Shown: positions 1,864-24,051, counted from the first letter of the stretch. The stretch is DNA of 25,070 nt from an uncultured Methanomicrobia archaeon (GCA_964557335.1 CAZKZX010000001.1:1-25070); one strand, 5' to 3'. Notes: a model not told the origin generated them from the sequence alone. Program-made: numbers and translations.

Positions 1864-1865
1864 CT

Positions 1866-3626: not shown

Positions 3627-3666
3627 CTGTCTTATGTCAGATGCCTTATAATCAAAAGGGGTAAAA

Positions 3667-4272: not shown

Positions 4273-4375
4273 CGTTACGGTCGCGTGATAAAAAGCACAC
4301 CCGCTTAAAAACCGGATACCTCATTTTTGGGGTTAAGATTTATACAATTGACCTAGAATTAACATAGGGAGTTCC

Positions 4376-7593: not shown

Positions 7594-8849
7594 TGGAGGA
7601 GTTTAACGTGCCCTTTCTAAGCGAATTTGTGAAGCGGCCTGTGGTTGATATCACGGGGAAAAGAGTTGGAAAGCTTACAGATGTCATTGTGTCAGCAGAC
7701 AAACCCTATCCAAAGGTAAAGGCTTTACGAATTCATACACTAGATAAAAATGATGTGAACGTGCCGTGGGGGCAGGTGCAAGACTTAGGAAGGCCGATAA
7801 AACTCAATGTGGAACTACACGAAGTGCGCGCATACTCGCAGCAAGAGCACGAAGTGCAACTCGTCAGTGACGTCCTAGATAGACAGGTGGTAGACGTCGA
7901 GGGAAAAAAGTTGCGAAGAGTAAATGATTTGCAGCTTTCGCGTATTAATGGCTACTACCGTCTTATCGGGGTTGACATTGGCGTCACTGGAGTACTCAGA
8001 AGACTCGGATTGGAGAGAGTTGCTGAGAGCGTAAAGATCCGGCCACAAGAAAATTACATTGCGTGGAATGATATCGACACCATACATAGTGGCCCATTAA
8101 GTGTGAAGCTAAGAGTTCCGAAATACAACCTCACAAAACTTCACCCAGCTGACATCGCAGAAATTGTGGATCAACTTACCGTCAACGAGAGTGTTGCTCT
8201 GCTCAGCGCACTTGACGAAGAATCGGCGGCCGATGCTCTTGAAGAGACGTCTCAAGAGAGGCAGCTTTCGGTGATTGAAAGGATTGACGCAGAGCGTGCT
8301 GCAGACATTTTAGATGAGATGTCGCCGGATGACGCAGCAGACTTGCTTGGAGACCTTCCGGCTGATAAAGCCAGAGAGATTCTCGAATTAATGGAGCCGG
8401 AAGAATCGGAAGATGTAATAGAGCTGCTTGGATATCCTGAAGATACTGCTGGCGGAATAATGACGACAGAGTTTGTGGCTGTTAATGAAAAGTGCACAGC
8501 GCAGCAGGCGATAGATGAAGTCAGAAAAGTTGCAAAGGAGGTTGAAACAATTTATTACATTTATGTTACGTCCGACGGTGACAACCTCGCGGGGGTGACC
8601 TCACTTCGGGAGATCCTACTCGCGCCCCCTGAAAAAAAGCTCTCGGAGTTTATGCACAAGAACATCATCAAGGCCGACGTTTTGGAAGATCAGCGTGAAG
8701 TAGCACAAAAAATCGCGAAATATAACTTACTTGCGCTCCCCGTTGTGGAAGAGAATAAAAAGATAAAAGGTATCATTACGGTAGATGATGCAATAGATAT
8801 CGTATTGCCAACTGCCTGGAAAAAGAAGGTTCCCAAGATGTTTGGCTGA
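7593..8849 (+). CDS. Soluble PRC-barrel + MgtE N-terminal + CBS-pair protein (MgtE cytoplasmic region without the TM domain)
   Basis: Two PRC-barrel-like segments (VVDITGKRVGKLTDV, VVDVEGKKLRRVNDL), LHPADIAEI, M.PDDAADLL, YPEDTAGGIMTTEFV and the CBS motifs GIITVDDAID. No hydrophobic helices. The start overlaps the Lrp stop (TAATG). Confidence 0.9.
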   Translation: MEEFNVPFLSEFVKRPVVDITGKRVGKLTDVIVSADKPYPKVKALRIHTLDKNDVNVPWGQVQDLGRPIKLNVELHEVRAYSQQEHEVQLVSDVLDRQVVDVEGKKLRRVNDLQLSRINGYYRLIGVDIGVTGVLRRLGLERVAESVKIRPQENYIAWNDIDTIHSGPLSVKLRVPKYNLTKLHPADIAEIVDQLTVNESVALLSALDEESAADALEETSQERQLSVIERIDAERAADILDEMSPDDAADLLGDLPADKAREILELMEPEESEDVIELLGYPEDTAGGIMTTEFVAVNEKCTAQQAIDEVRKVAKEVETIYYIYVTSDGDNLAGVTSLREILLAPPEKKLSEFMHKNIIKADVLEDQREVAQKIAKYNLLALPVVEENKKIKGIITVDDAIDIVLPTAWKKKVPKMFG

Positions 8850-8868
8850 AAAGTAGGGGGGCCAGATC

Positions 8869-10125
8869 TTGGATATTGAAATCTTCTTACGAAATTTTAG
8901 AGGGCCAACGTTAACGCGGCTCATCATATTCCTTTCCATTATGGGCCCTGGGATAATCACCGCCAGCGTAGATAATGATGCGGGTGGTATCACCACTTAT
9001 TCGTTGGCAGGCTCTCAATTTGGCTACCTCATGCTGTGGACGTTCATCCCTATGACCGTCGCATTAGCCGTCATTCAGGAGATGGGTGTGCGAATGGGCG
9101 TCGTATCCGGAAAAGGACTTGCTGCTCTTATCCGCGAGAAGACGGGGGTGAGAGTCACCTTTTTCGTGATGCTAGCATTGATAGTTGCTAATTTTGGGAA
9201 CATACTCGCTGAATTTTCAGGAATAGCGGTAAGTGGCGAAATATTTGGTGCGCCGCGCTTTATTGCTCTGCCCTTAGCCGTGGCATTTGTCTGGGGTTTG
9301 GTCATAAAAGGGAACTATAAAAGTGTCGAGAAAATTTTTTTGGTAGCATCATTTCTCTATGTCTCATACATTGTAGCGGGTATTTTGGCTCACCCGGATT
9401 GGCACACGGTAGCAGTAAGATCGTTCGTGCCGCAAATAACCTTTAATCAAGCATATATCACGATGATCGTGGGGCTGGTGGGAACCACAATCGCGCCGTG
9501 GATGCAATTCTATATTCAATCATCAATAGTTGAGAAAGGCGTCACGATAAAAAATCTCACGTATTCAAAAATAGATGCAATTTCAGGGGCTATAATAATC
9601 AATATTGTAGCTATTTTCATCGTAGTGGCATGTGCAGCCACGATCTTTGTCAGTGGGGTGCAAGTGAATAACGTCGCTGATATCTCATCAGCGCTTCTTC
9701 CATTAGCAGGGGAGTATGCAAGCGTTCTGTTTGCATTTGGATTTCTAAATGCTTCACTATTTGCTGCAAGCATCTTACCACTTTCCACGGCTTACGTCGT
9801 CAGTGAGGGCTTGGGTCTTGAGGCCGGTGTATCAAAGGGTTTTAGAGAGGCGCCGGTATTTTATGGATTATATGTCGGTTTGATGATACCTGCAGCACTT
9901 ATCATTATGGTACCATCTACGCCATTGCTTTCAATATTATATCTCTCTCAGGTTGCAAATGGCATTTTGCTGCCCTTTGTATTGATCTTCATGCTTATCA
10001 TAATTAATGATAAATCGGTAATGGGGGAGCACGTAAACTCGAGGTTATTCAATTATATCGCTTGGGCAACGGTTATTATTATGATAGGGTTGAGCATCAC
10101 ACTTATTGTGATAGGGCTGTTATAA
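8869..10125 (+). CDS. Nramp-family divalent metal transporter, NRMT (Mg2+-type) subgroup
   Basis: About 11 TM segments. TM1 reads MGPGIITASVDNDAGGITTYS (DNDAGG rather than the MntH DPGN motif) and TM6 reads GTTIAPWMQF. TTG start. Confidence 0.9.
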   Translation: MDIEIFLRNFRGPTLTRLIIFLSIMGPGIITASVDNDAGGITTYSLAGSQFGYLMLWTFIPMTVALAVIQEMGVRMGVVSGKGLAALIREKTGVRVTFFVMLALIVANFGNILAEFSGIAVSGEIFGAPRFIALPLAVAFVWGLVIKGNYKSVEKIFLVASFLYVSYIVAGILAHPDWHTVAVRSFVPQITFNQAYITMIVGLVGTTIAPWMQFYIQSSIVEKGVTIKNLTYSKIDAISGAIIINIVAIFIVVACAATIFVSGVQVNNVADISSALLPLAGEYASVLFAFGFLNASLFAASILPLSTAYVVSEGLGLEAGVSKGFREAPVFYGLYVGLMIPAALIIMVPSTPLLSILYLSQVANGILLPFVLIFMLIIINDKSVMGEHVNSRLFNYIAWATVIIMIGLSITLIVIGLL

Positions 10126-10187
10126 GACAAAAAAGCGAGAGAACTCGAACCGTAAAAGTTAACATTTTATTCATAACATTACTGCCA

Positions 10188-11621
10188 ATGAACAACGCTT
10201 CGAAGTCTAACAAACTCGATAGCTTCGATGTTACTAATTTAGTTGTTGGATCTGCCGTTGGGGCGGATATCTACGTGGTTGCCGCGCTTGGCAGCGGCTA
10301 TCTCGGACCAGCAGTCCTCTTCGCTTGGGTGATAGGCGGTATAATTGCGATTATCATTGCATTAAATTTCGCAGAATGTGCGGCTCTCATACCCCGCGTA
10401 GGAGGGCCGTATGCCTATGCACGCGAAGCATGGGGGAACTTTACTGGCTTTCTCGTCGGCTGGGGACTCTGGATTGCTGAGGTTGCCGCACTTGCGGTCA
10501 TGCCGGTCGCTTTTGTGAGATATCTTACCTTCTTTATCCCCTCTCTCACGTGGGTGCAGGGCGCGGTAATTAAAGTCTTATTTGTTGTAGTCTTTACCTA
10601 TGTGAATATCCGCGGGACGGGACTCGCGGGAAAGACGAATGATGTCCTTACCATTGCAAAACTGAGTCCGCTGTTACTTTTGATTGTTTTGGGATTGGTG
10701 TATCTAGGCACAAATCCCGCCCAGACGTATTCCAATTTGATTCCTTTTGCCCCTCTCGGCTTTAGCAACTTTGGACCGGCACTTATTCTCGCCTTTTGGG
10801 CCTACGCGGGGTTTGAACTTGCTGTTATTCCTTCCAATGAAATAGAGGACCCCACAATAACAATCCCCAAAGCTATGGTCATAGGCATGACGATCGTGAC
10901 CTTGTTTTACTTACTAACAAATTTCGTCGTAGTTGGGGCCATCAACTGGACAACACTCCAATTTGACCCTGCACCGCTAGCCTCAGCTGGGAGTGTAATT
11001 TTATCGTATACGCCAGCACTCGCTGCCATTGGCGGGGCGATTCTTGGACTCGGTGCGCTTATATCCATTTCAGGATTTGATGAATCTGGCACGTTAGCAA
11101 CTTCCCGATTGTCCTATGCGATCTCTCTTGACGGGCTGTTTCCTAAGTTTTTTAGTCAAATACATCCAAAATACAACACACCCTACAAAAGTCTGATAGC
11201 ACAGAGCACTATTGCGCTTTTTGGATCACTGGTAGGAGGGTTAAGCCAGCTTATAGTGTTCTCGGTTTTCAATCTCGCGTTTGTGTACCTCGTGACGTGT
11301 TCAGTAGTTTTGGTGTTAAGAGAGCGAAAAAAGCCCGAGGTGGGGCAGACAGTTGTCGAGAGATTGACCGGTCCAATCATACCTATCGCTGGTGTGATTT
11401 TGTCCGCTTATTTGTTACTGATAAGTGGTATTTCGACAATTATTTTCGGAATTATCACGATTTTGATAGGAGTACCCATTTATGTAGCGTATGCGCCGCG
11501 CACAGAAATGGAGACGTTGAAAAGAGAATTTCTTTCGACTGAGGCTATGCTATCAAGAGTTGCACGAACGCAAAGGGTTTTTCTCGGATATCTTTTTAGG
11601 CTCTTACGGAGGCATCTATAG
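10188..11621 (+). CDS. APC-superfamily amino acid/polyamine permease
   Basis: GS.VGADI, FAEC.A.IPRVGG.Y.YA, FWAY.GFE and R..YA...DG.FP..F..IH motifs; about 12 TM. Start moved from 10062 to the ATG at 10188 because the extension overlaps the upstream gene. Confidence 0.92.
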   Translation: MNNASKSNKLDSFDVTNLVVGSAVGADIYVVAALGSGYLGPAVLFAWVIGGIIAIIIALNFAECAALIPRVGGPYAYAREAWGNFTGFLVGWGLWIAEVAALAVMPVAFVRYLTFFIPSLTWVQGAVIKVLFVVVFTYVNIRGTGLAGKTNDVLTIAKLSPLLLLIVLGLVYLGTNPAQTYSNLIPFAPLGFSNFGPALILAFWAYAGFELAVIPSNEIEDPTITIPKAMVIGMTIVTLFYLLTNFVVVGAINWTTLQFDPAPLASAGSVILSYTPALAAIGGAILGLGALISISGFDESGTLATSRLSYAISLDGLFPKFFSQIHPKYNTPYKSLIAQSTIALFGSLVGGLSQLIVFSVFNLAFVYLVTCSVVLVLRERKKPEVGQTVVERLTGPIIPIAGVILSAYLLLISGISTIIFGIITILIGVPIYVAYAPRTEMETLKREFLSTEAMLSRVARTQRVFLGYLFRLLRRHL

Positions 11622-11710
11622 CAAAAGCAGACAGTTGAGCGGGCTACTGGAAGAGACGCTTTTCCCCGTTGCAGCAAGTTATTTAAAAGTAGTAAATAAT
11701 AGTGAGCGGT

Positions 11711-11959
11711 ATGGACCCCACGGGATTTGTAATACTACTTATTATAGCCTTTGCAATTTTAATTGGCGTTTACCTGGCGCTAAAGGCAGCTAAGTATTTG
11801 ATAGTTCATGCAATATTAGGCGTAGTTGTTCTTTTTATTGCCCGTTTGATTGGGATTGGCGTTGCAATAGACTGGAAAACCGTGATTATATGCGCAATAG
11901 GCGGTGTGCCGGGTGCAATACTCGTTATAATTCTATATTTTTTAGGAGTTCACCTTTGA
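11711..11959 (+). CDS. Small membrane protein of the pro-sigmaK processing inhibitor BofA family
   Basis: 82 aa with 3 hydrophobic segments and the ending H.ILG..VL......G....I.W....ICAIGGVPGAILVIIL. ATG at 11711 chosen over GTG at 11702. Confidence 0.75.
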   Translation: MDPTGFVILLIIAFAILIGVYLALKAAKYLIVHAILGVVVLFIARLIGIGVAIDWKTVIICAIGGVPGAILVIILYFLGVHL

Positions 11960-12064
11960 GGTGAAACAACAAATGACCTAAGGGGCTTTCTCTAGACTAT
12001 CAAGATGGTGTGTAAACTACACTCATTACTAATCCTTTTATTCACAGCCTTGCATTAATTATCT

Positions 12065-12682
12065 ATGGTCAACAACACTCTAGGCGTCATTGCGGTTATA
12101 TTCGATATAGGAAATACCCTTGTTCCTACTACTAATTTTGTTTATAAAGCGATTGTTGAAGCATTTACTTTAAACGGACTAAAAGCACCCCAATTTAAAG
12201 AGATGCTCAACATATCAGGACGATCTAAAAAAAATGTCTTCCCTCCACAAGTCTATGCTGACTATGAAAAAGTGATGAATGACCACGTCTATTTGCTCAA
12301 ACCATTTGAAGGTTCTGATAGGACTATTCGAACTTTGAAGAAGTTGGGGTACAAAATCTGCGCATTTACCGCCTTTCCCAAATCCGTTGTTAATACGATG
12401 TTTAAAACGTTTGGCTGGGACGTGCCGTTCCTCTCATCGGATGACGTTGAAGAAACGCGACCGTCGCCAATGGGCATCTTAAGGTCTGCGGACATGCTTG
12501 GAAGCAAGCCGAGCGAATGTGTGGCTGTTGGTGATACGATAGGTGATATACTAAGCGCAAAAGCAGCGGGGGCTCACGCGATAGCTGTAGCCACGGGATT
12601 ATTTAGCTACGATGTGCTACAGAGGGAGTCGCCCGATGCAGTAATTAAGGCCATAGAAGAAGTGCTTCAAATACTAAAATAA
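12065..12682 (+). CDS. HAD-superfamily hydrolase (subfamily IA, phosphoglycolate-phosphatase-like)
   Basis: Motif I VIFDIGNTL, motif II AFT, motif III RPSP, motif IV VGDTIGDI..AK.AG. Confidence 0.88.
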   Translation: MVNNTLGVIAVIFDIGNTLVPTTNFVYKAIVEAFTLNGLKAPQFKEMLNISGRSKKNVFPPQVYADYEKVMNDHVYLLKPFEGSDRTIRTLKKLGYKICAFTAFPKSVVNTMFKTFGWDVPFLSSDDVEETRPSPMGILRSADMLGSKPSECVAVGDTIGDILSAKAAGAHAIAVATGLFSYDVLQRESPDAVIKAIEEVLQILK

Positions 12683-13292
12683 GGCAGATTTCTACAAATT
12701 ATTGAAAGATAATTAGAACTCCGCAAACAGTCCGTTGTCTGCTTACAACTTTTAGTGTTCACCTTCTTTTGATTTTTACGAAACCATTTTGCTACTAAAA
12801 CTTTTCAGCAGACATAACGGCCGAAATCTTAGTTGTTGAAGCTTTTCAACAATTAAATTTTAATTTAATTGTGTCCGAATCGGGTTTATTGCTTGATCAT
12901 TGCCTGATTTATAAAACTCTGGTTGACGATGCTACAAACCTACTCATTCACAGTACAATTAGTGTTACTTGCTATAAGCGCGTTACTAGCGGGAAGCCTG
13001 TTATTCGCTTAATTGATTATTTAAGCGTCTGAGCGTCTATACGACTTCATTTCATGATATGAAGGCTGACATGAACGCTGCAGATCAGTCTGTATTTTAA
13101 CTTGCTTACAATAGAAGAAGTTTAAAGAGCAGCGCTTCATAACTGCGATCTAATATTCGTTCTTATGTTGTTAAGTCTTTTCAAATGCGGTTGTTACCTT
13201 TTTGACTACATCTTCACATTGGTTATTACGTGAGAGGCTCTATTCCTTATAGAGCGTACGCAAAAGGTCCCCGTTAGTCCAGCTTTATTACC

Positions 13293-13312
13293 ATAGCAAC
13301 TAATTTTGCTAT
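13293..13312 (-). terminator. Possible hairpin terminator just downstream of the ald-like gene
   Basis: ATAGCAA (13293-13299) / TTGCTAT (13306-13312) stem 4 nt past the stop. A second stem, GCTCTAT/ATAGAGC, lies at 13237-13255. Confidence 0.3.
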
Positions 13313-13316
13313 AGGA

Positions 13317-14606
13317 TTAATAACCGCCTTCCCTATTATTCAGAGAATGTTCAGCGATGACGTTTTCCAACGGAGTACAAGGCAAATCTAAAGATTGGGC
13401 CACTTCCTTGTTTACAAGTTTGCCATTAATTACATTTATGCCACTTTTCAATTCTGGCAAATCATATATCGCCTGTATTCCATGTTCCGCGAGAGCTAAC
13501 ACATAGGGAAAAATCGCTTGCCCCAACAAAGTTGTTGAAATTCTTGGGACTCGTCCGGGCATATTTGTAACCCCATATCGTATATTGCCAAACTCATCTA
13601 AGAAAACAGGGTTTTTATGCGTCGTTCCCCGTGAGCCGTAAATATTGCCCCCCTGATCAATTGAGATGTCCACAATTACCCTCTTTCTCGATGTTCGCAT
13701 TTTTTTAAGAACCTCTCGATCAATGATAAGTGCCGCTTTTCTACCGACAGTATAGGCAGCACCTATGATGATGTCTGTTTGAGTAAGATCAAATCTATAT
13801 TTTTCCTTAAGATAAGATGCTATATCTATGTCACGAAAGGCGCTAGGTGTTTCCAAGATTTGGATTTTAAAATCTTTCAATTCCGGTTGGGAGATAAAAA
13901 GTTGGAGCTCTGGTATTCTTTTTCCTTCTCTCTGAATTATGTAAACCTTAGCACCCATTTTGACCAATATCTTTGAGGCGTTTTTTCCTGCAACACCTCC
14001 TCCCAATACAAGAGCAGTTTTACCTGTCAGATCGTAAGGAGGCTCGTCGAATAATGTGCTATATGCAAGGCTGTTGAGGAGGCGTTCTAACTGCTCTTTT
14101 TCTTTAACGGAGACCTCTATTTTATCCCTCTTTATGTTCGCGTGTGTTAAATAAAAGGCAGCCTGATACGCTCCTAATACCCCAGCGACGATGCTGCTGG
14201 GCTCTAAAAGGATGGTTCTACCATCTTTTACTATCGTTTCATAGGCGATAGCAGTAACCCCGGATTTCATCAACGCTTTGGCAAGAAGCTTGTTACTCGC
14301 TAAGTGTAAAAACGTAAACAGAAGGTGATCGGGCCGTATAAAATCGTATTCTTCTTGCATGGGCTCTTTAACTTTTACGATTAGATCAGCCTTACCCCAT
14401 GATTCCTCAGCGGTTTGGACAACTGTTGCGCGTGCCTTTGTATAATCTTCATCAGAGTACCCCGCTTTCTCGCCTGCAGTGGTTTGAACGATAACCTTCA
14501 TGCCCTTTTCTGTTAATACGCTAACTGAGGAAGGGGTAAGACTTACCCTCCCTTCTTGTGGTTTTATTTCTTTTGGGACGCCAACAACCCAAGAAAGCAG
14601 CGTCAT
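13317..14606 (-). CDS. ald: Divergent alanine dehydrogenase (AlaDH/PNT family) homolog
   Basis: VGVPKEIK..E.RV.LTP, VKVKEP, FLHLA, AIAYET, VLGGGVAG, VDISIDQGG and YGVTNMPG.VP motifs. Start placed at ATG 14606 (MTLLSWVVGVPKE), matching the normal family N-terminus. Confidence 0.85.
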   Translation of the reverse strand: MTLLSWVVGVPKEIKPQEGRVSLTPSSVSVLTEKGMKVIVQTTAGEKAGYSDEDYTKARATVVQTAEESWGKADLIVKVKEPMQEEYDFIRPDHLLFTFLHLASNKLLAKALMKSGVTAIAYETIVKDGRTILLEPSSIVAGVLGAYQAAFYLTHANIKRDKIEVSVKEKEQLERLLNSLAYSTLFDEPPYDLTGKTALVLGGGVAGKNASKILVKMGAKVYIIQREGKRIPELQLFISQPELKDFKIQILETPSAFRDIDIASYLKEKYRFDLTQTDIIIGAAYTVGRKAALIIDREVLKKMRTSRKRVIVDISIDQGGNIYGSRGTTHKNPVFLDEFGNIRYGVTNMPGRVPRISTTLLGQAIFPYVLALAEHGIQAIYDLPELKSGINVINGKLVNKEVAQSLDLPCTPLENVIAEHSLNNREGGY

Positions 14607-15228
14607 GATGATGAAAAATCGCTTGTTTGTGGCTCTCCTCAAGGAAAAATACGACCTTAAATGAATTTTTTCAAATAAGCTAAAAGATTTCTTTAACAAC
14701 ATTTTCCCCCCTTGATACTACGTTGTAAATAATAGTAGTAGGAGAATGTCCCTCACACCTCGTAGTCCTCGAGAAGTAACAGCAGTAGTTAATGGATCAA
14801 CCGTTCACATATTTTGCTATTTCTATTTTTTAACGAGATAAGAAAACACGTTTTTTGTTATTTTTCCTTACGTCGAATAGAACAACCTGAATCACGAAAC
14901 ATATTTGAGCTTCGTGTTATGACAGTTGTCATAATTTAATATTATCCACTAAGTGGAAGAACAATTACACACAGAATCTGAAGTAGAAAAACTATTTTCT
15001 TGATTTATTAAATAAGAGTTTTAGATTTCTGTTAAAATCTGCTGCGTCTAAAAAAGCATTTCTCTATTTGAATTGCTAGCTCTTTTGGCGTTTCCGTATT
15101 CAAACGTGTTGGTGTCATTTCTCTACGGACTTTTGCCTACTTTACCTGGAAGCAAATCTTAAATTATATTATAACACACTTCATACTCTTTATCGTACGA
15201 CATTTCTGTGAGCTGAGTAACGCTAAAA

Positions 15229-16068
15229 ATGCCACGAAATAAAATTTTACACAAGGATTGTATTGCTGGGATCAACGAACACATTGATGACGGCCAAGTT
15301 GATGTCATCGTCACCTCACCCCCGTACAACATCGGCGTTAAGTATAGCACCTATTATGATGCAATCCCGAGGGCAGAATATCTAAGCTGGATAGAAGACG
15401 TCACTAAGGAGTGTAAAAGAGCATTAAATGATAAGGGCTCACTATTTCTCAATTTAGGATACAAACCGAAAGACCCGTGGATTGCCTGGGAAGTCGCTTT
15501 TAGACTCAAGCCGCACTTAAAACTACAAAACGTTATCCATTGGATAAAGTCAATTGCAATTTCTCGCGACGACGTGGGCAAAGCTCAAAGCGTAGCTGGG
15601 GATATCGCTGTCGGACACTACAAACCCGTAAATAGCAAATATTTTGTCAACAAATGCCACGAATATGTCTTTCACTTTACCAAATATGGTGATGTCGAAC
15701 TGAGCAAACTTGAGATAGGCGTACCGTATCAGGACAAGAGCAATATACGACGATGGAAGGGTTCAAAACGTGGAATAAGAGATCGTGGCGACACGTGGTT
15801 TATACCATATACAACTATAAAAGCGAGGGAGAGAGATCGGCCACACCCTGCAAGTTTTCCGTTCAAATTACCGATGATGTGTATAAAATTGCACGGCGTA
15901 GAAAATACAAAACTGGTCTTGGATCCATTCATGGGAATTGGAAGTACCGCGGTAGCGTGTAAGAAGCTTGGGGTCGATTATATCGGATTTGAAGTGGACG
16001 AAAATTACATTGAAATTGCCGAAAAAATACTTAATAACGAGTCATTTATTAATTGCTCTACTAAATGA
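15229..16068 (+). CDS. Site-specific amino-DNA methyltransferase (N4-cytosine/N6-adenine), beta class, apparently orphan
   Basis: Catalytic motif [11 protein letters not shown] comes before the SAM-binding motif [12 protein letters not shown] (beta order); HPASFP and IGFEVDENY are also present. Confidence 0.92.
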
Positions 16069-16299: not shown

Positions 16300-17418
16300 T
16301 TAAATATTCTTCATAAAGCGTTCTTTTATTTCAACTGCAGTATATGGGATATCTCGCACATCTGCATTTCCTGGCTTTATTACAGCGTGGATGAACTTCA
16401 GCCCTCCTCTTTGTTCAAGTGCAGCGTTCAAATCTTCTGCCTTATATGCCTTACAGGTGTTTTCAATCCCGAAGCCCCGTGCTAACAATTCGAGGTCCAT
16501 TTTTTGACTCGCCGTTTGTTGGTTGCCCGTTGAACCGTACGTTCCATTATCGAGGGCGACAATCGTGAGGTTTTCTCTGCCGAATTGTGATACGCTACAG
16601 AGAGCGTTGGGATTCATAAGGAGGCTTCCGTCGCCATCAAGGACAATAACGTCTCTCCTAGTGTACAAAGATACTCCTAAACCTATAGAAGACGCGAGCC
16701 CCATGCTCCCAAGCATATAGAAGTTCGTGGGCTGATCACACACTGCATAGAGTTCCTTACTCGGCACGCCGATGTTCGAGATGATGATTTTACCCTCTAG
16801 ATGAGACAACATTGCCCGAATCGCATCGTACCGCGTCATAAGTACATGCTCGAATGGAGATGTATTGATCGTCACTGGACATTCAGCTCTTCCACGCTTC
16901 ACTGTGTGATTAACGTCAAGTGAAGCGCACTCCCACAGCTGGGGAGATATAAGAATGACAACAGGTAAACGCGTTTCAAAAGACGTTCTTATTCCTTCAT
17001 TCATTAGAAAGAGGTCGTCAATTGTGTGTACTTCATAACTTTGAACCTCTAACGCAGTTAAAACTGCCCTTAAATGCGTGCCCCAATACACCTGCGCCTC
17101 TATGCCCTCTCTATACACTCCTCTCCAACTTGCCACAATTGGGAGGGGTATTTCATACGTAAAACTCAAAGAAGAGAGCGCGTTTAAAAGATTTCCTATT
17201 CCTGTGCTTTGAATGAGCATGAGTGGATGCGCCCCGGCAAGGTAAGCGCCGGCGCATATGCCAACCCCATCCTCCTCTCTTGTCAGTTGAACTTCAAAGA
17301 AGTTATCAGAAACAAGAGGCAGCAGATTTTTAAGCCTGTCGCAAGGAAGAGTCGCAACTAAATCAATCTTATTTCTTTTAAATAGCTCAATAATTGCCTG
17401 TTCTGCTGCCATGTCCAT
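16300..17418 (-). CDS. comDE: Fused sulfopyruvate decarboxylase ComD-ComE
   Basis: ComD half has LPCD, TREEDGVGICAGAYLAG and SWRG. ComE half has MTRYDAI, NFYMLGSMG and the ThDP motif GDGSLLMN...DNGTYGSTG. It lies 23 nt downstream of cysteate synthase. Confidence 0.93.
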   Translation of the reverse strand: MDMAAEQAIIELFKRNKIDLVATLPCDRLKNLLPLVSDNFFEVQLTREEDGVGICAGAYLAGAHPLMLIQSTGIGNLLNALSSLSFTYEIPLPIVASWRGVYREGIEAQVYWGTHLRAVLTALEVQSYEVHTIDDLFLMNEGIRTSFETRLPVVILISPQLWECASLDVNHTVKRGRAECPVTINTSPFEHVLMTRYDAIRAMLSHLEGKIIISNIGVPSKELYAVCDQPTNFYMLGSMGLASSIGLGVSLYTRRDVIVLDGDGSLLMNPNALCSVSQFGRENLTIVALDNGTYGSTGNQQTASQKMDLELLARGFGIENTCKAYKAEDLNAALEQRGGLKFIHAVIKPGNADVRDIPYTAVEIKERFMKNI

Positions 17419-17441
17419 TTTAGTTTCGTCAGCGCTATGGT

Positions 17442-18728
17442 TTACGTTATAACCTCCAGTATCTCCTCTAGCGCTACTTGAGGATTGTCCACAATCAACT
17501 GGGGTGCAATTGTATATCGCTGTTTATCCTCTGCAAGCCGCTTTTCTCCGCCGCCGGTAATATTTAAAAGAACCACTTCATCTGTGTTTATGCTCTGATG
17601 TTCAACTGCTTGCAGTAATGAAGCCGTTGCTACCGCTGCGGCTGGAACAATGTCTATGCCCTCGAGATCTTCAAATAAGCTTGACGCCGCAATTGCTTCG
17701 TCGTTCGTCACCGCATACATCTCGCCAAAGGTGTTCTGTAATGCGTCATACACCCCGCCTTTCATTGAGTACGCGGGATTTCGATTCGATAGAACGTCTG
17801 CATAAATTTTAGCGATGTTTTCCTTCGCATGTTTCATATCGATCGAAGGGACAATAAATCGTCGCCCTGCTTTCCAAGCGTTATACATGGGAACAAATGG
17901 GCGATTTTGTGAAAGATGCAGTTGCGGAAGCCTAGCCTGTACGAATTGTCCACTATCTTGTAGCCTCAACGACGCTTCCCATGCTGCTATAGCTCCTGCT
18001 CCACTCCCTATCGCTTGAAAATAATACGTCGGGGTTTTTCCTATAGTCAGTGCGGCCTCAAGCATGACCGTACCCATGCCGTCGCGCCGCGCAACGTTCC
18101 TCGCCCCCCCTTCTGGTGAGAGCCCATCAGCCTGAGAAAATCTTTCCCCGAGGGCTATAGCATCTGAATAATCATTACCGGCTTTTAAATAAATGAGCTT
18201 GACATTGTTTGACGGTTTTTCCGGCAACCACAGCTTATCTGAAGAGCTTTCAAGCCCAACGAGTATCAACTTAAGTGAAGCCTGGGAGGTGGTGACCGTA
18301 TGGGCAAAAGCCCGTGCAGTGTTGCCAACAGATGAGATAACAAGAGCATTAATGCCGTTTTCTAACGCTCGCTGCACGGTAGGGGGCGACTCCAGCTCCT
18401 TAAAGCTGCACGTCTCGAAATGCGCGTTCATTTCCGGCCAATAGCCATTGAAGCTGATATACAGTTCTTTCAAACCGAGCTCTTTTGAAAGCCCCACACT
18501 TTTATAGGTGATGGAGCGACCGCAAGTATTAAGCTTCCCGTTTGTTGGCAACCACTGTCCAAATTTCCAGATGTTATTATCACTAGTCGGTTCAAGTCTC
18601 TTTTTATGATACACTGTCCGCAACAACGCGTCCCCGCACTTACATCGTAGTGCGTATCCTCTGTAGCTTACACTAGAATGACATCCCAAGCAGACGATGT
18701 CGTAGCCTTTATTTAGGTTTGCAATCAT
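17442..18728 (-). CDS. Cysteate synthase (PLP-dependent, threonine-synthase-related)
   Basis: N-terminal CxxC...CxC, PLP lysine in TCSFKELE, SVGNTARAF, the family-typical ARRDGMGTVM, YFQA.GSG.GAIAAWEA, VLSNRNPAY and NITGGG; adjacent to comDE. Confidence 0.93.
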   Translation of the reverse strand: MIANLNKGYDIVCLGCHSSVSYRGYALRCKCGDALLRTVYHKKRLEPTSDNNIWKFGQWLPTNGKLNTCGRSITYKSVGLSKELGLKELYISFNGYWPEMNAHFETCSFKELESPPTVQRALENGINALVISSVGNTARAFAHTVTTSQASLKLILVGLESSSDKLWLPEKPSNNVKLIYLKAGNDYSDAIALGERFSQADGLSPEGGARNVARRDGMGTVMLEAALTIGKTPTYYFQAIGSGAGAIAAWEASLRLQDSGQFVQARLPQLHLSQNRPFVPMYNAWKAGRRFIVPSIDMKHAKENIAKIYADVLSNRNPAYSMKGGVYDALQNTFGEMYAVTNDEAIAASSLFEDLEGIDIVPAAAVATASLLQAVEHQSINTDEVVLLNITGGGEKRLAEDKQRYTIAPQLIVDNPQVALEEILEVIT

Positions 18729-18761
18729 AAACTAGTACAATAATTATTTTAGTTCGTTATT

Positions 18762-18770
18762 TATTTATAA
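18762..18770 (-). promoter_or_regulatory. TATA box of the cysteate synthase-comDE operon
   Basis: TTATAAATA on the minus strand, 33 nt upstream of the ATG at 18728. Confidence 0.6.
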
Positions 18771-18848
18771 TCATCGCTTTCTTCCATAAATGTATAATTG
18801 CAGCAAAAAAATATCACAAATGGGATAATAATTTCTTGTATTAGATAA

Positions 18849-18857
18849 TTATAAATA
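18849..18857 (+). promoter_or_regulatory. TATA box of the hdrCBA-marker 16 operon
   Basis: TTATAAATA on the plus strand, 29 nt upstream of the ATG at 18887. Confidence 0.6.
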
Positions 18858-18886
18858 CGTTTATTAACAAAAATTACATTTTGACC

Positions 18887-19465
18887 ATGAAAAAAAGCAA
18901 ATTGCCGCCCAAAAAAGCCAATATATCTCATAATGCTAATGATTTTGATTTTTTGTACAATAAGGAAAATATTATTAAGTGTTTCCAATGTGGGAGATGT
19001 ACTTCGAGCTGTCCAGCAGCACGGGTCTTTGACGAATACAGTCCGCGTGAGATCATGCGTCGGGTTCAAGACGGTGAGAGCAACGATCTCGTCCATGATG
19101 ATGTGATATGGCTCTGCGGCCAGTGCCATACGTGTAGTTCACGGTGTCCGAGAAATAACGATCCAGCATCCATTATACTTGATCTACGACAGCGAGCGTA
19201 TAAAGAGGGCTTAGGAAGCCCTAACCTGCGCCAAAAAGCAGAGCTTATGGTGCAATCGCTGTGGGAGAAGGGGGTTACAGTTTCACCTGATCTCGTCAAA
19301 CAGGGAATGTTCAGTGACCTTGTGGACTCTGATACGCTCATACAGTTGCGGACTGAACTTGGTTTGGCTGACGCGGAGACGCGAGAGATTAAAATCCCCG
19401 AAAGTGCGCTTGAGGAAATACGAACTATTTTACGAAAAACTGGCATTATCGCGAGAGGTGAATGA
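18887..19465 (+). CDS. hdrC: Heterodisulfide reductase subunit C
   Basis: CFQCGRCTSSCP, YSPREIMR, IWLCGQCHTCSSRCPR, P...I..LRQ.A. ATG at 18887 chosen over TTG at 18881. Confidence 0.93.
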   Translation: MKKSKLPPKKANISHNANDFDFLYNKENIIKCFQCGRCTSSCPAARVFDEYSPREIMRRVQDGESNDLVHDDVIWLCGQCHTCSSRCPRNNDPASIILDLRQRAYKEGLGSPNLRQKAELMVQSLWEKGVTVSPDLVKQGMFSDLVDSDTLIQLRTELGLADAETREIKIPESALEEIRTILRKTGIIARGE

Positions 19466-19466
19466 A

Positions 19467-20393
19467 TTGGCAACGAATGATCGTGCACTGTTTTTCGGCA
19501 GACGCCCAGAGCGTTTGTACCTGTTTAAGAGCTGTGTTGCAGGCACCTTCTGTCCATATATAGAGCGGTCATTCAGATTCATCCTGAACTCACTAAGCAT
19601 CGACTACTTTGATGACCCGCGTCAATCATCGTGTACCGGCTTCGGGAAACACTGCGGGGTAATGCCCCCAGAGACCACCCTCGCGCTCAATGCAAGGAAT
19701 CTGGCTTTGGCGCACGACTCAGGGTACACGAACGTCGTGTGTACGTGCCCAACCTCATACGGCAATTTAAAGGAGTGCATAGAAGAGCTAAAAGACGTAA
19801 AGACAAAGAACGCTATCGATGCAGTCCTACAGACCATTGGTGTCGTATACAACGACGACCTCCACGTCTTTCACGCTGCTGAAGTGATTCACTCGCTCCG
19901 TGATACGCTCAATAAAAGGTCCAGAGGGTCTCTAAATGGTATCAGAATAGCTACGCACCATGGATGTCACTATACTAAGATATTCTACGATGAGATTGTA
20001 GGGGGTACTTGGGAATACCCGACGCTGCTAGACGAGATATTCGAGCCCTTTTCACCCGAACTGATCGACTACCCTGAGCGGACGTTGTGCTGTGGCCTTG
20101 GGTTCACGCACCTCATTGGCGATAGAGTTTATACAGAAGCAACGGCATTGAGAAAGCTTGAAAGCATCCTCTCTGAAACGCCCGATGTGATAGTCACAAT
20201 GTGTGCCGGCTGTCAAGCGGTGCTCGATACATACCAAAAGTCGTTTGAAAATAAACTGGACCATACGGCGCCTGTATTAAATGTGGCGCAACTTATGGCC
20301 ATACTACTCGGAGCAGACGTCCACAAAGATGCCTGTCTCCAATTCTCATCGATTGATGTCGGGCCACTCCTAGAGAAAATGGCGGTGATCTGA
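19467..20393 (+). CDS. hdrB: Heterodisulfide reductase subunit B (two CCG domains; N-terminal one atypical)
   Basis: LFKSC, QSSCTG, CTCPTSY, HHGCHY, LCCGLG, TMCAGCQ and the ending NVAQL.A..LGAD. Start inferred as TTG 19467, 5 nt after GAGGTGA (alternative GTG 19458). Confidence 0.92.
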   Translation: MATNDRALFFGRRPERLYLFKSCVAGTFCPYIERSFRFILNSLSIDYFDDPRQSSCTGFGKHCGVMPPETTLALNARNLALAHDSGYTNVVCTCPTSYGNLKECIEELKDVKTKNAIDAVLQTIGVVYNDDLHVFHAAEVIHSLRDTLNKRSRGSLNGIRIATHHGCHYTKIFYDEIVGGTWEYPTLLDEIFEPFSPELIDYPERTLCCGLGFTHLIGDRVYTEATALRKLESILSETPDVIVTMCAGCQAVLDTYQKSFENKLDHTAPVLNVAQLMAILLGADVHKDACLQFSSIDVGPLLEKMAVI

Positions 20394-20394
20394 T

Positions 20395-22749
20395 ATGGGC
20401 GGCTTCGGAGTCTTTATCTGCAAATGTGACGGCAACATCTCTCAGATCGTGGACGTAGACGAACTTGAACAACATTTTCTAAAGGAACACATCACGCTAA
20501 CCGATCAACATCTTTGCTCACTACAAGGACAGGAAAAGATTCGACAGGCGATACTCGAAAACGCGCTTGAGGGAGTCGTGATCGCTTCTTGTTCGCCGAA
20601 CAACCACGGAAAGACATTTCAACGATGTATCAGCGACGCCGGGCTCAACCCCTATCTTTTGGAGTTTGCAAATATCAGAGAACAATGCTCGTGGGTCACT
20701 AAAGATCCCGAAAAGGCAACGGAAAAAGCCCGCGACCTCATTTTTGCTTCGCTTCTTCGCCTTCAACACGCAGAACCGCTTGAGGACTTCAACGTGCGAG
20801 TTAATCACACCGCAATGGTAATTGGTGGTGGTATAGCTGGGATAACATCAGCACTCTCGCTTGCAGAAAACGGAATTAAAACCTATCTCATCGAAAAGGA
20901 GCCCTCACTAGGTGGTAACTCAGTGAGAGTGGGAAAGGTATTCTCTCCTCATAAAATGGTCGAGGAATGCGCGATGTGTTCCCTCAGTCCTCTTATGAAC
21001 GACGTTTACCGAAGCGCAAACATTGAGACCCTGACAAGCGCAGAGCTCACGGGTATCAATGGTACCGCAGGCAACTTCAACGTGGAACTAAAGCTAACGC
21101 CGAGGAGGGTCAATGAAAGCTGTACAAGCTGCGGTGAATGCGCGATAGTGTGCCCAGTGGAAGTAGACGACTGGTGGAATGCCGGTACAAAAAGTCGGAA
21201 GGCTATTTACAAGCCATTCCCTCAGGCTGTCCCAGATCGATACGTCATAGATGTTGAAACGTGCATCGGCTGCGGAAAATGCGTTAAGGCCTGCAAATCC
21301 GAGGCAATCGATCTCAATGAAGAAAGCGCTACGCTTCGCATAAACGTTGGAACTATTGTCATTGCAACGGGGCATGATGAGTTTGACCCACATCTTAGAC
21401 CTGAGTACGGCTACGGACGGTTTAAAGACGTTGTAACGCAGCTTGAGCTTGCTCGATTTATTGGGGTCAACGGTCCCACGAACGGCGAACTCTTACGGCC
21501 CTCAGACTTGACTCCTCCTAAGGAGGTCGTAATGATACAATGCGTCGGTTCAAGGGACGAAAAGCCAAACGGCTTACGGTACTGTTCATCGGTGTGCTGC
21601 ATGGTAGCGCTCAAGCACGCCAATTACATACGGGATTACTATCCTGGAACGAACATCACCATTCTCTACACAGACATTAGAGCTCTCGGAATTCACGAGA
21701 ACTATTACCGACACGTACAGGAGAAGGGAGTTCGGTTTATTCGCGGCAGGGCTGGCGACGTGAAGTTTCGACACGGAAAGTTGTTTGTGAGCGTAGAAGA
21801 TACTCTTAGCTCACGGTTTTTGGAACTTGAAGCAGATTTGGTGGTCCTGTCGAACGGCCTCAAACCTTCAGCGGGAACTATTAAAATGGCACAACTCCTA
21901 GGACTGGAACTCAGCGACGACATGTTCGTTAAGGAGAGGCACCCGAAGCTTGAGGGCTCGAGCACAAGCGTTAAGGGGATTTATGTCTGTGGCACCTCCC
22001 AAGGACCAAAAGATATCACCGAGAGCGTCCTACAAGCCGATGCCGCAGCGCTTAAAGCGTTGTCACTCGTGGGGAAAGAACAACTTTCAATAGAACCCTT
22101 CACCGCGTTTGTGAAAGAAAGCTGCGATGGGTGCGGTCGATGCGTACATGCGTGCAAGAGTAGCGCACTTAAGATCGTTGACAGGCGAGGGGTGATCGAT
22201 CCCCTCCTGTGCACTGGTGGCGGTGCGTGCTTGTCAAGTTGCCCAAGCGCCTCGCTTGATTTGCACGGAAGCACTGAAGCGCAGCTTGAGGCTTCAATAC
22301 GAGGCGTCTTGGAAAACAAGAAGCACGGAGAAGTACGAACGATTGCGTTCCTCGATACGAAAATCGGCTATCCGGCTGCGGATAACATGGGTGCATCAAA
22401 ACTTTCATATCCCGACTCGATACGCATCATTAACGTTCCTTCTGTGCTTCGGCTCTGCCCTCATCACATAAATACAGCGTTCAAGTTAGGAGCTGATGGT
22501 GTTTTTATTGGACAAGGCTTTGAAGCAGAGAGCTGCGGCGAAGATTTTGAAACCGTTGAGGCAAAACTCAATAAATTGAACGACGACGTTCTGAAGCTCG
22601 GAGTGGATCCTGCACGGCTTAAGATATATAGAGTCTATATCCCTCACTTCGTAGGACTCCACAAACGGCTTATTTCATTTGATCTAGCCATACGTGCAAA
22701 TAGCGAGCACAAGACGCAGCTCGTTGAAGTGGAAACGGACTCTTCATAG
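20395..22749 (+). CDS. hdrA: Heterodisulfide reductase subunit A with a C-terminal MvhD-like domain
   Basis: GVFICKC, ASCSP, ANIREQCSWV, FAD motif VIGGGIAG, inserted ferredoxin domain (CTSCGEC..VCP, CIGCGKC..AC), QCVGSRD...YCSSVCC, GT.QGPKDI, a C-terminal ferredoxin domain and an MvhD-like tail (YP.SIRII...AF..GADGVF). Confidence 0.95.
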   Translation: MGGFGVFICKCDGNISQIVDVDELEQHFLKEHITLTDQHLCSLQGQEKIRQAILENALEGVVIASCSPNNHGKTFQRCISDAGLNPYLLEFANIREQCSWVTKDPEKATEKARDLIFASLLRLQHAEPLEDFNVRVNHTAMVIGGGIAGITSALSLAENGIKTYLIEKEPSLGGNSVRVGKVFSPHKMVEECAMCSLSPLMNDVYRSANIETLTSAELTGINGTAGNFNVELKLTPRRVNESCTSCGECAIVCPVEVDDWWNAGTKSRKAIYKPFPQAVPDRYVIDVETCIGCGKCVKACKSEAIDLNEESATLRINVGTIVIATGHDEFDPHLRPEYGYGRFKDVVTQLELARFIGVNGPTNGELLRPSDLTPPKEVVMIQCVGSRDEKPNGLRYCSSVCCMVALKHANYIRDYYPGTNITILYTDIRALGIHENYYRHVQEKGVRFIRGRAGDVKFRHGKLFVSVEDTLSSRFLELEADLVVLSNGLKPSAGTIKMAQLLGLELSDDMFVKERHPKLEGSSTSVKGIYVCGTSQGPKDITESVLQADAAALKALSLVGKEQLSIEPFTAFVKESCDGCGRCVHACKSSALKIVDRRGVIDPLLCTGGGACLSSCPSASLDLHGSTEAQLEASIRGVLENKKHGEVRTIAFLDTKIGYPAADNMGASKLSYPDSIRIINVPSVLRLCPHHINTAFKLGADGVFIGQGFEAESCGEDFETVEAKLNKLNDDVLKLGVDPARLKIYRVYIPHFVGLHKRLISFDLAIRANSEHKTQLVEVETDSS

Positions 22750-22770
22750 AGCGAAATTTGAGGTATTGAC

Positions 22771-24051
22771 GTGAATACGCCTGCACAAAAGCCCCTTCAA
22801 ACTATTAAAGAAATTAATGATAAAATAGCATCGGGGGACGTTAAAGTGCTCACTGCCTCCGAACTATGCGATATGGTCAGAGACGGCGAGGAGGTATACG
22901 ACGTTGACGTTGTCACGAGCGGCACCAAAGGGATAATGAGTGGCACGTATGGGACGCTCTCCTTTATGGTTGCAGAGCCAAGCACTTTTGAGCGGGCGGA
23001 GAAGGTTTGGCTAAACGACGTACCGGCCTTTGTCGGGCCGTGTCCAAATGAACGACTTGGAATTGTCGATGTGATCATCTCAGGGACAGCGATTTGCAGA
23101 AGCGACAACAGATACGGAGGGGGGCACCTGTTGCATGACTTGCTGCGCAGAGAAGAGGTGAGCGTCGAACTGGAAACCGATGAAGGACGTCACCTTCAAA
23201 TCGAGACGCACCTTGATGAGATGCATTACGCCGCCCTGTTCGCAACAAGAAACGCGTTTAAAAACTATAACGCCTTTATCAATCCTCGAGAAGGGTGTGT
23301 CAGATCCATTTTTTCTGTGCAGTGCCTTCACGGGCCGTATGAGGAGGCGAGTTTCTGTGGGTGTGGCGAAATTAACCCGCTAGAGAAGGATCCTCAGCTT
23401 GAAACTATAGGCATAGGCACGAAAGTTTTGTTAAATGGGGCTGTTGGATACGTAACAGGTCGCGGGACTCGAAGTTCGCCTGAAAGACCTAATTTATCGG
23501 GGTATGCTGAAATGTGGGATATGAACCCCCGTTATATAGGAGGGTACAACACCTCTGCTGGACCTGATATTTTTTGTTCATGGGCAGTTCCAATTCCGAT
23601 CACAAACAACAGAGTGTTGGAAAACGTAAAGAAGACTGATGAAGAGATACCGCTCCCTATAGTAGATGTAAATGGTAGAGAGCTGCTCGGATACGCGAAG
23701 TACAGTGACGTGTGGAAAAGCAAGTGTGCGCCAGTTACATACGAAGAAAAGATGTGCCAGACATGCGAGCAGTGCTTCGTCACGGAACTCTGTCCTACCG
23801 GCGCGTTTAGATACGGCAAAGGCATTGACAAAGAAAAATGCACGAACTGCGGCGCATGTGTAATTGCTTGTATATACGGTGCTTTAAAAGCCGATCTCGG
23901 GCATATTCCCTTTAAGGGCATGGAAATACCGGTTACGTTGCGGCAGTCTGATAAATGCAAGGCAGTAAAGCTTATGGACAGTCTTAAAGAGATGATTGAA
24001 AGAGGAGAATTCTTGTTAAGCGAGCCGGTCGGAAAAATAACATTTAGATGA
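22771..24051 (+). CDS. Methanogenesis marker 16 metalloprotein (DUF39 family + C-terminal 2x[4Fe-4S]); probable coenzyme M synthase
   Basis: VDVVTSGT.GIMSGT, GPCPNERLG, RNAFKNY.AF.N, SF.GCGEINPLEKDP, GTKVLLNGAVGYV.G.GTRS, then CQTCEQC....LCP and CTNCGAC...C. GTG start after a GAGGT RBS, 21 nt after hdrA. Confidence 0.92.
   Translation: MNTPAQKPLQTIKEINDKIASGDVKVLTASELCDMVRDGEEVYDVDVVTSGTKGIMSGTYGTLSFMVAEPSTFERAEKVWLNDVPAFVGPCPNERLGIVDVIISGTAICRSDNRYGGGHLLHDLLRREEVSVELETDEGRHLQIETHLDEMHYAALFATRNAFKNYNAFINPREGCVRSIFSVQCLHGPYEEASFCGCGEINPLEKDPQLETIGIGTKVLLNGAVGYVTGRGTRSSPERPNLSGYAEMWDMNPRYIGGYNTSAGPDIFCSWAVPIPITNNRVLENVKKTDEEIPLPIVDVNGRELLGYAKYSDVWKSKCAPVTYEEKMCQTCEQCFVTELCPTGAFRYGKGIDKEKCTNCGACVIACIYGALKADLGHIPFKGMEIPVTLRQSDKCKAVKLMDSLKEMIERGEFLLSEPVGKITFR

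Follow-up and report, generated by a model that had tools for sequence, protein, structure and literature searches.

A heterodisulfide reductase-like module encoded with coenzyme M biosynthesis genes, a candidate redox partner of the MMP16 coenzyme M synthase

We analysed a stretch of 25,070 nucleotides (nt) from an uncultured Methanomicrobia archaeon (GCA_964557335.1 CAZKZX010000001.1:1-25070), hereafter the window, with a focus on a block at positions 16300 to 24051 where genes for coenzyme M (CoM) biosynthesis stand next to genes for an atypical heterodisulfide reductase (Hdr). Two minus-strand genes, comDE and the gene of cysteate synthase (CS), diverge from four plus-strand genes, hdrC, hdrB, hdrA and the gene of methanogenesis marker 16 (MMP16). 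Profile searches and open reading frame (ORF) coordinates agreed in full with an earlier, model-made reading of the sequence alone (the sequence-only reading), which had given these six genes, their strands, coordinates and gaps, and their divergence from a 158-bp region. The features were as follows (protein lengths in amino acids, aa).

16300..17418, minus strand: comDE, fused sulfopyruvate decarboxylase (372 aa); TIGR03845, TIGR03846; Pfam TPP_enzyme_N + TPP_enzyme_C
17442..18728, minus strand: cysteate synthase, CS (428 aa); TIGR03844; Pfam PALP
18729..18886, no strand: divergent spacer, 158 bp, AT-rich (21% G+C)
18887..19465, plus strand: HdrC-like subunit (192 aa); NF041779/NF041890; Pfam Fer4_8; two CxxCxxCxxxCP motifs
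19467..20393, plus strand: variant HdrB (308 aa); NF041780, TIGR03288; two Pfam CCG stretches
20395..22749, plus strand: HdrA with fused C-terminal MvhD (784 aa), type Ia / class A2-1; NF041891; Pfam FlpD
22771..24051, plus strand: methanogenesis marker 16 (MMP16) / CoM synthase ComF (426 aa, GTG start); TIGR03287; PF01837 (HcyBio) + Fer4

The genes of CoM synthesis were assigned with scores above the family cut-offs. Both parts of ComDE were found in the same ORF, the alpha part at aa 6-162 (TIGR03845, 192 bits, cut-off 148) and the beta part at aa 196-372 (TIGR03846, 230.5 bits, cut-off 221.5). CS reached equivalog level with TIGR03844 (533 bits, cut-off 325) and has the pyridoxal phosphate-enzyme fold (PALP). 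MMP16 (COG1900d) matched TIGR03287 over its full length (aa 26-415 of 426, 505 bits, cut-off 364), and its HcyBio domain (PF01837) is followed by a C-terminal 2x[4Fe-4S] ferredoxin domain. In an alignment of 16 diverse MMP16 homologs, C91, C198 and seven cysteines of the ferredoxin domain were invariant, and the eighth, C332, was nearly so. For these families it is established that cysteate synthase and ComDE yield sulfoacetaldehyde. MMP16 of the window is predicted to convert this aldehyde to CoM, a conversion shown genetically for Methanosarcina acetivorans alone, where MMP16 is the primary CoM synthase (Chadwick et al. 2025, PMC12068725), as stated in the sequence-only reading.

The plus-strand genes are tightly packed, with gaps of 1, 1 and 21 nt between hdrC, hdrB, hdrA and the MMP16 gene, and there is no space for a promoter inside the operon. 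An alternative GTG start of hdrB at 19458 would overlap hdrC by 8 nt; this earlier start was picked by the gene callers in a 98% identical relative (311 aa). The GTG start of MMP16 is preceded, at a distance of 7 nt, by a GAGGT ribosome-binding site. Because of this site and the short gaps, the four genes are almost certainly expressed as a single transcript. The spacer between CS and hdrC presumably holds promoters for both directions. Its length was 140-166 bp in 60 loci from the clade of the window, the uncultured class Bog-38 and Methanocella, and two TATA-like blocks were kept in the spacer alignment from Methanocella to the window clade. A palindromic operator, suggested by eye from TCC-N-GGA-like repeats in several loci, was dropped after a shuffle test. 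Inverted repeats were present in 38 of 46 spacer sequences compared to a mean of 39.5 in shuffles, and since they were as frequent in the shuffled sequences, no operator is claimed. Neither an Rfam family nor a tRNA (ARAGORN) was detected in the window.

The three ORFs upstream of MMP16 had HdrC, HdrB and HdrA as their best NCBIfam matches, but each scored under the equivalog cut-offs: HdrC with 110 bits to NF041779 and NF041890 (cut-offs 350 and 270), HdrB with 200 bits to NF041780 (cut-off 450) and 117 bits to TIGR03288 (cut-off 345), and HdrA with 990 bits to NF041891 (cut-off 1300). With the fusion of MvhD to HdrA and the remodelled N-terminal CCG site of HdrB described below, these scores bore out the label "atypical HdrABC" given to the complex before. 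HdrA aligned over aa 4-639 with 5odc_A (567 bits, 636 residues, all domains). As read from the alignment, it has the FAD/TrxR fold together with its inserted and C-terminal ferredoxin domains, and the Lys and Glu that PMC12054007 cites as conserved near the flavin are retained in the stretches 'CCMVALK' and 'LELAR'; it looks like a complete bifurcating subunit. MvhD (PF02662 FlpD) is fused at aa 650-766, corresponding to nt 22342-22692. Because of this fusion and the full domain set, the window HdrA falls in the type Ia / A2-1 class of the HdrA survey (PMC12054007). Over the first 400 aa it was 71% identical to the A2-1 HdrA of Bog-38, 47-49% to the Methanocella proteins encoded beside CS-comDE, and 43-44% to both the Methanosarcinales-type A2-1 and the canonical A1 proteins. 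The latter two are 48-56% identical and thus closer to each other than to the window HdrA, which, judged by these identities, is not close kin of the characterised HdrA2 type.

Against the solved HdrB chains, HdrB scored weakly, with 106-119 bits and an identity of roughly 25-30%. All five canonical cysteines (C153, C193, C194, C231 and C234 in 5ODC_B) are present in its C-terminal CCG site. In the N-terminal site (C9, C41, C42, C78 and C81 in 5ODC_B), two are replaced by serine (C41S and C81S), leaving HdrB with one of its two motifs intact, and new cysteines occur two residues before C78, seven after C81, and as C63 of the window protein. The five cysteines of each CCG site have been reported as perfectly conserved in HdrB (PMC13261682). 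The altered N-terminal motif was common to the whole subfamily, which by annotation comprises Methanocella, Methanomassiliicoccales and extra Methanobacteriales paralogs. We considered this motif as a sign of a role in CoM synthesis and rejected it, because subfamily members lacking CoM gene neighbours share it; the motif marks the subfamily and not a CoM function. Stand-alone paralogs, 61-65% identical to the window HdrB and without adjoining hdrC or hdrA, were also seen among the surveyed loci, which are cited by L numbers (L105-L107, L111-L113, L115, L120, L134, L147 and L148). In L115 (3851-8900), the lone HdrB gene is divergent from genes for an NUBPL/Mrp-type ATPase, a DUF5320 protein, two NifX-like proteins and two MinD-type ATPases with ferredoxin inserts, and the ORF layout of L111 and L112 matches this locus.

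The window module was compared with several known systems. Like HdrA2B2C2 of M. acetivorans, which is ferredoxin- and F420H2-dependent (Yan et al. 2017, PMC5296606), it has MvhD fused to the C-terminus of HdrA and no hydrogenase or formate dehydrogenase genes attached, and a soluble three-subunit complex is expected. It differs in that HdrB2 retains both canonical CCG motifs whereas the window HdrB has C41S, C81S and new cysteines, and in gene order, hdrC-hdrB-hdrA-MMP16 in the window as opposed to unlinked hdrA2 and hdrB2C2 in M. acetivorans (PMC5296606). With canonical HdrABC of hydrogenotrophic methanogens (5ODC, 7BKB, 8RVU, 9SFI) the module shares the three subunit families and the complete C-terminal CCG site of HdrB. 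However, its HdrB is weakly matched and remodelled at the N-terminal cluster site, MvhD is fused rather than separate, and the hdr genes do not adjoin mvh, fdh or fwd genes. The clustering of MMP16 with CS and comDE is as in the MMP16/ComF loci of PMC12068725, but in the window the co-transcribed neighbour of MMP16 is an Hdr module. The paralogous L-aspartate semialdehyde sulfurtransferase (COG1900a protein MA1821 and the NIL-ferredoxin protein MA1822) depends on a sulfur donor and on an Fe-S partner that delivers electrons. That partner is a small ferredoxin-domain protein and no Hdr, and MMP16 has a ferredoxin domain of its own.

The conservation of the block was surveyed in two sets of loci, 80 from genomes, chosen by their MMP16 homologs, and 76 from metagenomes, chosen by their HdrB homologs, plus single look-ups. 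The six proteins of the window were mapped onto these loci, and the counts given here are of non-redundant loci with enough flank. The closest relatives were metagenome-assembled genomes (MAGs) of uncultured 'Euryarchaeota archaeon' from Danish soils, with MMP16 84-97% identical; two are closed, with chromosomes of about 2.6-2.7 Mb, and OY970258.1 and OY969924.1 are complete relatives. The next relatives were MAGs from bog, fen and SPRUCE peat (MMP16 59-65%), including a genome naming the GTDB class Bog-38. We read the block as the CoM-supply locus of a peat methanogen related to this class. Within the window clade (HdrB at least 74% identical), the divergent CS was present upstream in 6/6 loci, and HdrA and MMP16 downstream in 5/5. 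Among the true operons of the Bog-38-like group (HdrB 58-70%), the corresponding counts were 28/28 and 21/21. The group with HdrB of 40-50% had the divergent CS in 6 of 14 loci, all of them in the Methanocella clade, with HdrA in 13/13 and MMP16 in 0/13. Below 40%, a set made up of the ANME-1-type fused form (anaerobic methanotrophic archaea, ANME), L056 and L080, CS was on the same strand in 7/7 and MMP16 was present in 6/6. The linkage is therefore not unique to this genome; uniqueness was one of the outcomes that, by the sequence-only reading, would have refuted its proposal. The block occurred in all informative loci of the window clade and Bog-38, and other forms were found elsewhere.

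Several of these other forms differ in gene order and Hdr type. In the cultured Methanocella conradii HZ254 (CP003243.1, about 1.392-1.399 Mb) and Methanocella sp. MCL-LM, as well as in related metagenomic contigs, comDE-CS diverge from hdrC-hdrB-hdrA(MvhD) as in the window. In two MAG contigs, L056 and L080, the order CS-comDE-hdrC-hdrB-hdrA-MMP16-DUF362 runs on one strand, with a 1-nt overlap (L056) or a 1-nt gap (L080) between hdrA and MMP16. The Hdr type of these contigs is near-canonical, with 10/10 canonical cysteines in HdrB; the DUF362 gene 3' of MMP16 lies at 8003-8809 in L056 and at 6996-7787 in L080. In six ANME-1-type MAG contigs, one protein of 475-535 aa, consisting of an HdrC part and an HdrB part, is encoded directly before MMP16. 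The junction ranges from an overlap of about 40 nt between the called ORFs to an 18-nt gap, and CS follows. The comDE gene comes after CS in L036 and L064 and upstream of the fused gene in L078, and no hdrA was seen near the fused genes in the loci fetched. The ANME-1 MAG locus L064 carries an operon of CoM-supply genes alone, namely fused hdrCB, MMP16, CS, comDE and an SsuA-like ABC transporter. In this locus (7737-15750), genes for an SsuA/NMT1-like binding protein and for a permease form the continuation of the operon, and a helix-turn-helix regulator is encoded divergently ahead of it. Three Hdr types thus stand directly upstream of MMP16: the window clade and Bog-38 have the variant type, L056 and L080 the near-canonical one, and the ANME-1-type contigs the fused one. 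Since all informative loci of two clades show the arrangement, and at least three further lineages show it in other configurations, it is far beyond chance.

The fused ANME-1-type partner of MMP16 resembles TfrAB and HdrD in that a ferredoxin part like that of HdrC and two CCG domains are joined in one chain, and both TfrB/HdrD and the fused protein are modules coupling thiol/disulfide chemistry to another redox enzyme. Unlike TfrB, the fused protein scored 46 bits against a TfrB cut-off of 385 and matched HdrC and HdrB best; the version in the window, in contrast to TfrAB/HdrD, is unfused and comes with HdrA. In Candidatus Alkanophaga volatiphilum (L019, 8031-12595), a 454-aa flavoprotein disulfide reductase (Pyr_redox_2 and dimerisation domain) is encoded divergently from MMP16. 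A second, divergent COG1900 paralog follows MMP16 in this locus, and a tandem paralog was also seen in L020.

The sequence-only reading had also named as a refuting outcome that this is the only HdrABC of its genome. In the relatives, the linked Hdr is not the only one. Bog-38 genomes have two HdrA each, a 780-aa A2-1 protein and a canonical 660-aa A1 protein (PMC12054007 supplement), and the A2-1 copies sit on the contigs of the MMP16 block (PMMR01000051.1 and PMYA01000143.1). A Bog-38 hdrA adjoins an FwdB-type gene (PMC12054007 text), and for energy metabolism M. conradii uses a fwd-hdrABC-mvhD transcription unit that is separate from the CoM-linked genes (PMC6019823). Because of the separate A1 HdrA and fwd-hdrABC-mvhD, the CoM-linked Hdr is a second paralog in these relatives.

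The block was also compared at the nucleotide level with near-identical relatives. Relative to L082 (OY970258.1) and L001, nucleotide identity was mostly 93-99% in comDE, CS, MMP16 and the downstream gene, except for one comDE segment at 88% to L001. Within hdrC-hdrB-hdrA (window 18900-22500) it fell to 65-82%, with 84-88% at the 3' end of hdrA. A third relative, L002, showed a uniform identity of 78-95%. The G+C fraction of the hdrCBA stretch was 0.49-0.50 compared to 0.40-0.46 in the flanks. Recombination between near-identical strains seems to have exchanged the hdrCBA cassette and left MMP16 in place.

MMP16 was reported to cluster with CS and comDE in many lineages, and its recurrent neighbours were named as an ATPase, a Ni-binding GTPase and a COG2000 Fe-S protein; Hdr is not among the neighbours named in the main text (PMC12068725). 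In the same study, the CoM-starved MMP16 deletion mutant of M. acetivorans induced hdrABC together with cs, comDE and ssu, and the discussion left open the sulfur donor and mechanism of CoM synthase. An hdrABC deletion mutant of M. acetivorans had 34% less CoM-SH and was rescued by sulfide, or by CoM plus acetate. The HdrA survey (PMC12054007) makes no mention of CoM biosynthesis, and full-text searches for MMP16 or COG1900 with Hdr found, within the library searched, no other publication on linkage of hdr and CoM-synthesis genes.

Together, these observations point to an Hdr-type complex that was recruited to, or is at least co-regulated with, a cofactor biosynthesis pathway. We favour the Hdr module as a redox partner of the MMP16 CoM synthase, because Hdr offers an electron path and the only known site specialised for CoM-disulfide cleavage, and we rate this role at slightly less than an even chance. 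We infer a physical coupling between Hdr and MMP16, a direction of electron flow and a chemistry as follows. The final reaction would be sulfoacetaldehyde + sulfide + 2 e- -> CoM, with the sulfur entering as sulfide or persulfide. Like the MvhD-fused HdrA2B2C2 of M. acetivorans, HdrA would draw on F420H2 or reduced ferredoxin for its electrons, and it would pass them via its flavin to the clusters of HdrC. From HdrC they could be handed to the 2x[4Fe-4S] domain of MMP16 (route a), or the non-cubane cluster site of HdrB could reductively cleave CoM-S-S-X to CoM-SH (route b), where CoM-S-S-X would be a persulfide, or else a mixed disulfide, that stays behind on the sulfur donor or the enzyme. 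The ANME-1-type HdrC-HdrB without HdrA would do the same job, and its electrons may come from CoM-SH/CoB-SH (CoB, coenzyme B), as in thiol:fumarate reductase. This electron source looks feasible because the aldehyde-plus-sulfide/thiol couple, by a rough estimate, lies above the -140 mV heterodisulfide couple. In a more specific form of the proposal, CoM synthase would be a holoenzyme with the Hdr module as one of its working subunits. MMP16 would create the C-S bond by joining sulfoacetaldehyde with a persulfide donor, so that CoM-S-S-X remains, and the remodelled HdrB site (or that of ANME-1 HdrC-HdrB) would then free CoM-SH with electrons from the HdrA flavin; we hold this form to be unlikely.

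The strongest support for a redox partner of MMP16 is the placement of three Hdr types directly upstream of MMP16 in distant lineages. The tight operon, the conserved synteny, the CoM-only operon of L064, the second paralogy and the co-induction of hdrABC in M. acetivorans also count for it, and so does the disulfide reductase beside MMP16 in Alkanophaga, which is unrelated to Hdr. A number of observations weigh against it. The Methanocella hdrCBA adjoins CS-comDE and not MMP16, which is about 840 kb off in MCL-LM. MMP16 occurs without adjoining Hdr in Methanosarcina, where it is convergent with comDE-CS, as well as in Methanocella and Desulfobacterales, and the same HdrB subfamily with its motif was found away from any CoM gene in L081, L084, L088 and L094. 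The exchange of hdrCBA between strains speaks against a tight co-adaptation with MMP16, and a complete bifurcating HdrA seems elaborate for a low-flux biosynthetic step. Moreover, according to a report cited in PMC12068725, MMP16 alone yielded CoM in Escherichia coli. The sequence-only reading, in which this Hdr may serve MMP16 as an electron and/or sulfur donor, is partly supported. The "HdrABC-marker 16" arrangement that it put forward was conserved in the window clade and Bog-38, but as a frame it is too narrow in view of Methanocella and of the HdrB subfamily members free of CoM genes.

The main rival explanation is CoM-thiol homeostasis, in which the linked Hdr would reduce CoM-S-S-CoB or other CoM disulfides such as CoM-S-S-CoM and would share a regulon and a divergent promoter with CoM synthesis, as both raise free CoM-SH, with no direct part in the chemistry of MMP16. 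The hdrABC that M. acetivorans co-induces with cs, comDE and ssu under CoM starvation is unlinked to them, and the lowered CoM-SH of its deletion mutant with the rescue by sulfide or CoM plus acetate fits such a role. So do the intact C-terminal CCG site, HdrC clusters and HdrA bifurcation residues, the full set of ten canonical cysteines in HdrB of L056 and L080, and the sulfonate-type uptake system of the ANME-1 operon, which would suit the reduction of imported oxidised CoM. On the other hand, a fused HdrC-HdrB without HdrA or another electron-input gene is implausible as a stand-alone reductase unless fed by MMP16 or another protein, the N-terminal non-cubane site has lost two of its five cysteines while the biochemically proven HdrB2 keeps both motifs, and the coupling to MMP16 is tight in three independent arrangements. 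CoM-thiol homeostasis nonetheless keeps a place as a possible, less probable explanation, because the Methanocella hdrCBA is coupled to CS-comDE apart from MMP16 and members of the HdrB subfamily occur without CoM genes.

The same Methanocella loci bear on the supply of sulfite, since CS-comDE, and not MMP16, is the most widely kept neighbour of hdrCBA (window clade, Bog-38 and Methanocella). An sHdr-like oxidation of sulfide or persulfide sulfur to sulfite for cysteate synthase would agree with this and with the altered active site of HdrB, and we know of no identified sulfite source for cysteate synthase in sulfide-grown methanogens. The hallmarks of sHdr are duplicated hdrB and hdrC, a minimal HdrA, and lbpA, dsrE and tusA as neighbours. 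The window, with single hdrC and hdrB genes, lacks them: no lbpA, dsrE, tusA or second hdrB or hdrC was found in it, and its HdrA is the full-length type Ia. The sHdr-type HdrB of Acidiferrobacter grouped with canonical HdrB, far from the window clade, in a neighbour-joining tree (BLOSUM distances, midpoint-rooted, no support values) that was used for coarse grouping only. No siroheme-type enzyme is encoded nearby, and the module adjoins MMP16 in L056, L080 and the ANME-1 loci; sulfite supply is accordingly improbable. Even more improbable is a neutral neighbourhood, that is, an ordinary F420H2- or ferredoxin-dependent heterodisulfide reductase that came to lie beside CoM genes by chance and was so inherited. 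Plain vertical inheritance could account for the conservation in Bog-38 and the window clade, and half of the group with HdrB of 40-50% identity has no CoM neighbours. However, differing Hdr types and orders (divergent, co-directional and fused) recur while MMP16 and HdrB are just 33-55% identical across lineages, and spacer length and TATA-like blocks were retained from Methanocella to the window clade.

No methane is formed without CoM, and the anaerobic oxidation of methane and alkanes depends on it as well. The assignment of MMP16 to the last step of CoM biosynthesis dates only from 2025; Hdr is a concrete, testable candidate for the electron donor of this step. Were the holoenzyme form of the redox-partner proposal true, it would give an HdrABC-type complex its first biosynthetic role and would identify the electron donor of CoM synthesis. 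A CoM-linked role would also explain one of the many extra Hdr copies in methanogens and ANME archaea. Tests are feasible without cultivating the peat organism, as the hdrCBA lineage lies beside CS-comDE in the cultured M. conradii. If homeostasis holds instead, the locus would still be a CoM-thiol homeostasis unit with a divergent promoter region conserved in length and TATA-like blocks.

MMP16 homologs of about 50% identity were also found in Desulfobacterales (L024, L034, L040, L055 and L077), where they adjoin comDE and a cysteate-synthase-like gene. In Desulfospira joergensenii DSM 10085 (L055, NZ_ATUG01000002.1), an aminotransferase gene lies directly upstream, with genes for a corrinoid-binding protein and a methyltransferase nearby. 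By gene content, this is a putative complete archaeal-type CoM pathway cluster in sulfate reducers, and a literature search found no paper on it.

Elsewhere in the window, a 279-aa N6/N4 DNA methylase is encoded on the plus strand at 15229-16068, between an alanine-dehydrogenase-like gene and comDE. The same slot in L082 (4668-6740) holds an MjaV-like gene and a 461-aa methylase on the minus strand, and this variation looks like a swap of restriction-modification islands. The alanine-dehydrogenase-like gene (13317-14702) encodes a 461-aa protein of the alanine dehydrogenase/PNT family that matched the alanine dehydrogenase model in two separate stretches with 287 bits (cut-off 392), which suggests an insertion or a different specificity. 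The region 104-5806 carries genes for NuoD/FpoD-like (the called ORF is without the N-terminal third), NuoH-like and NuoI/HyfH-like proteins, followed by a thioredoxin-reductase-like flavoprotein, a polyferredoxin and a B12-binding radical SAM protein, and constitutes an unusual partial complex-I-like module.

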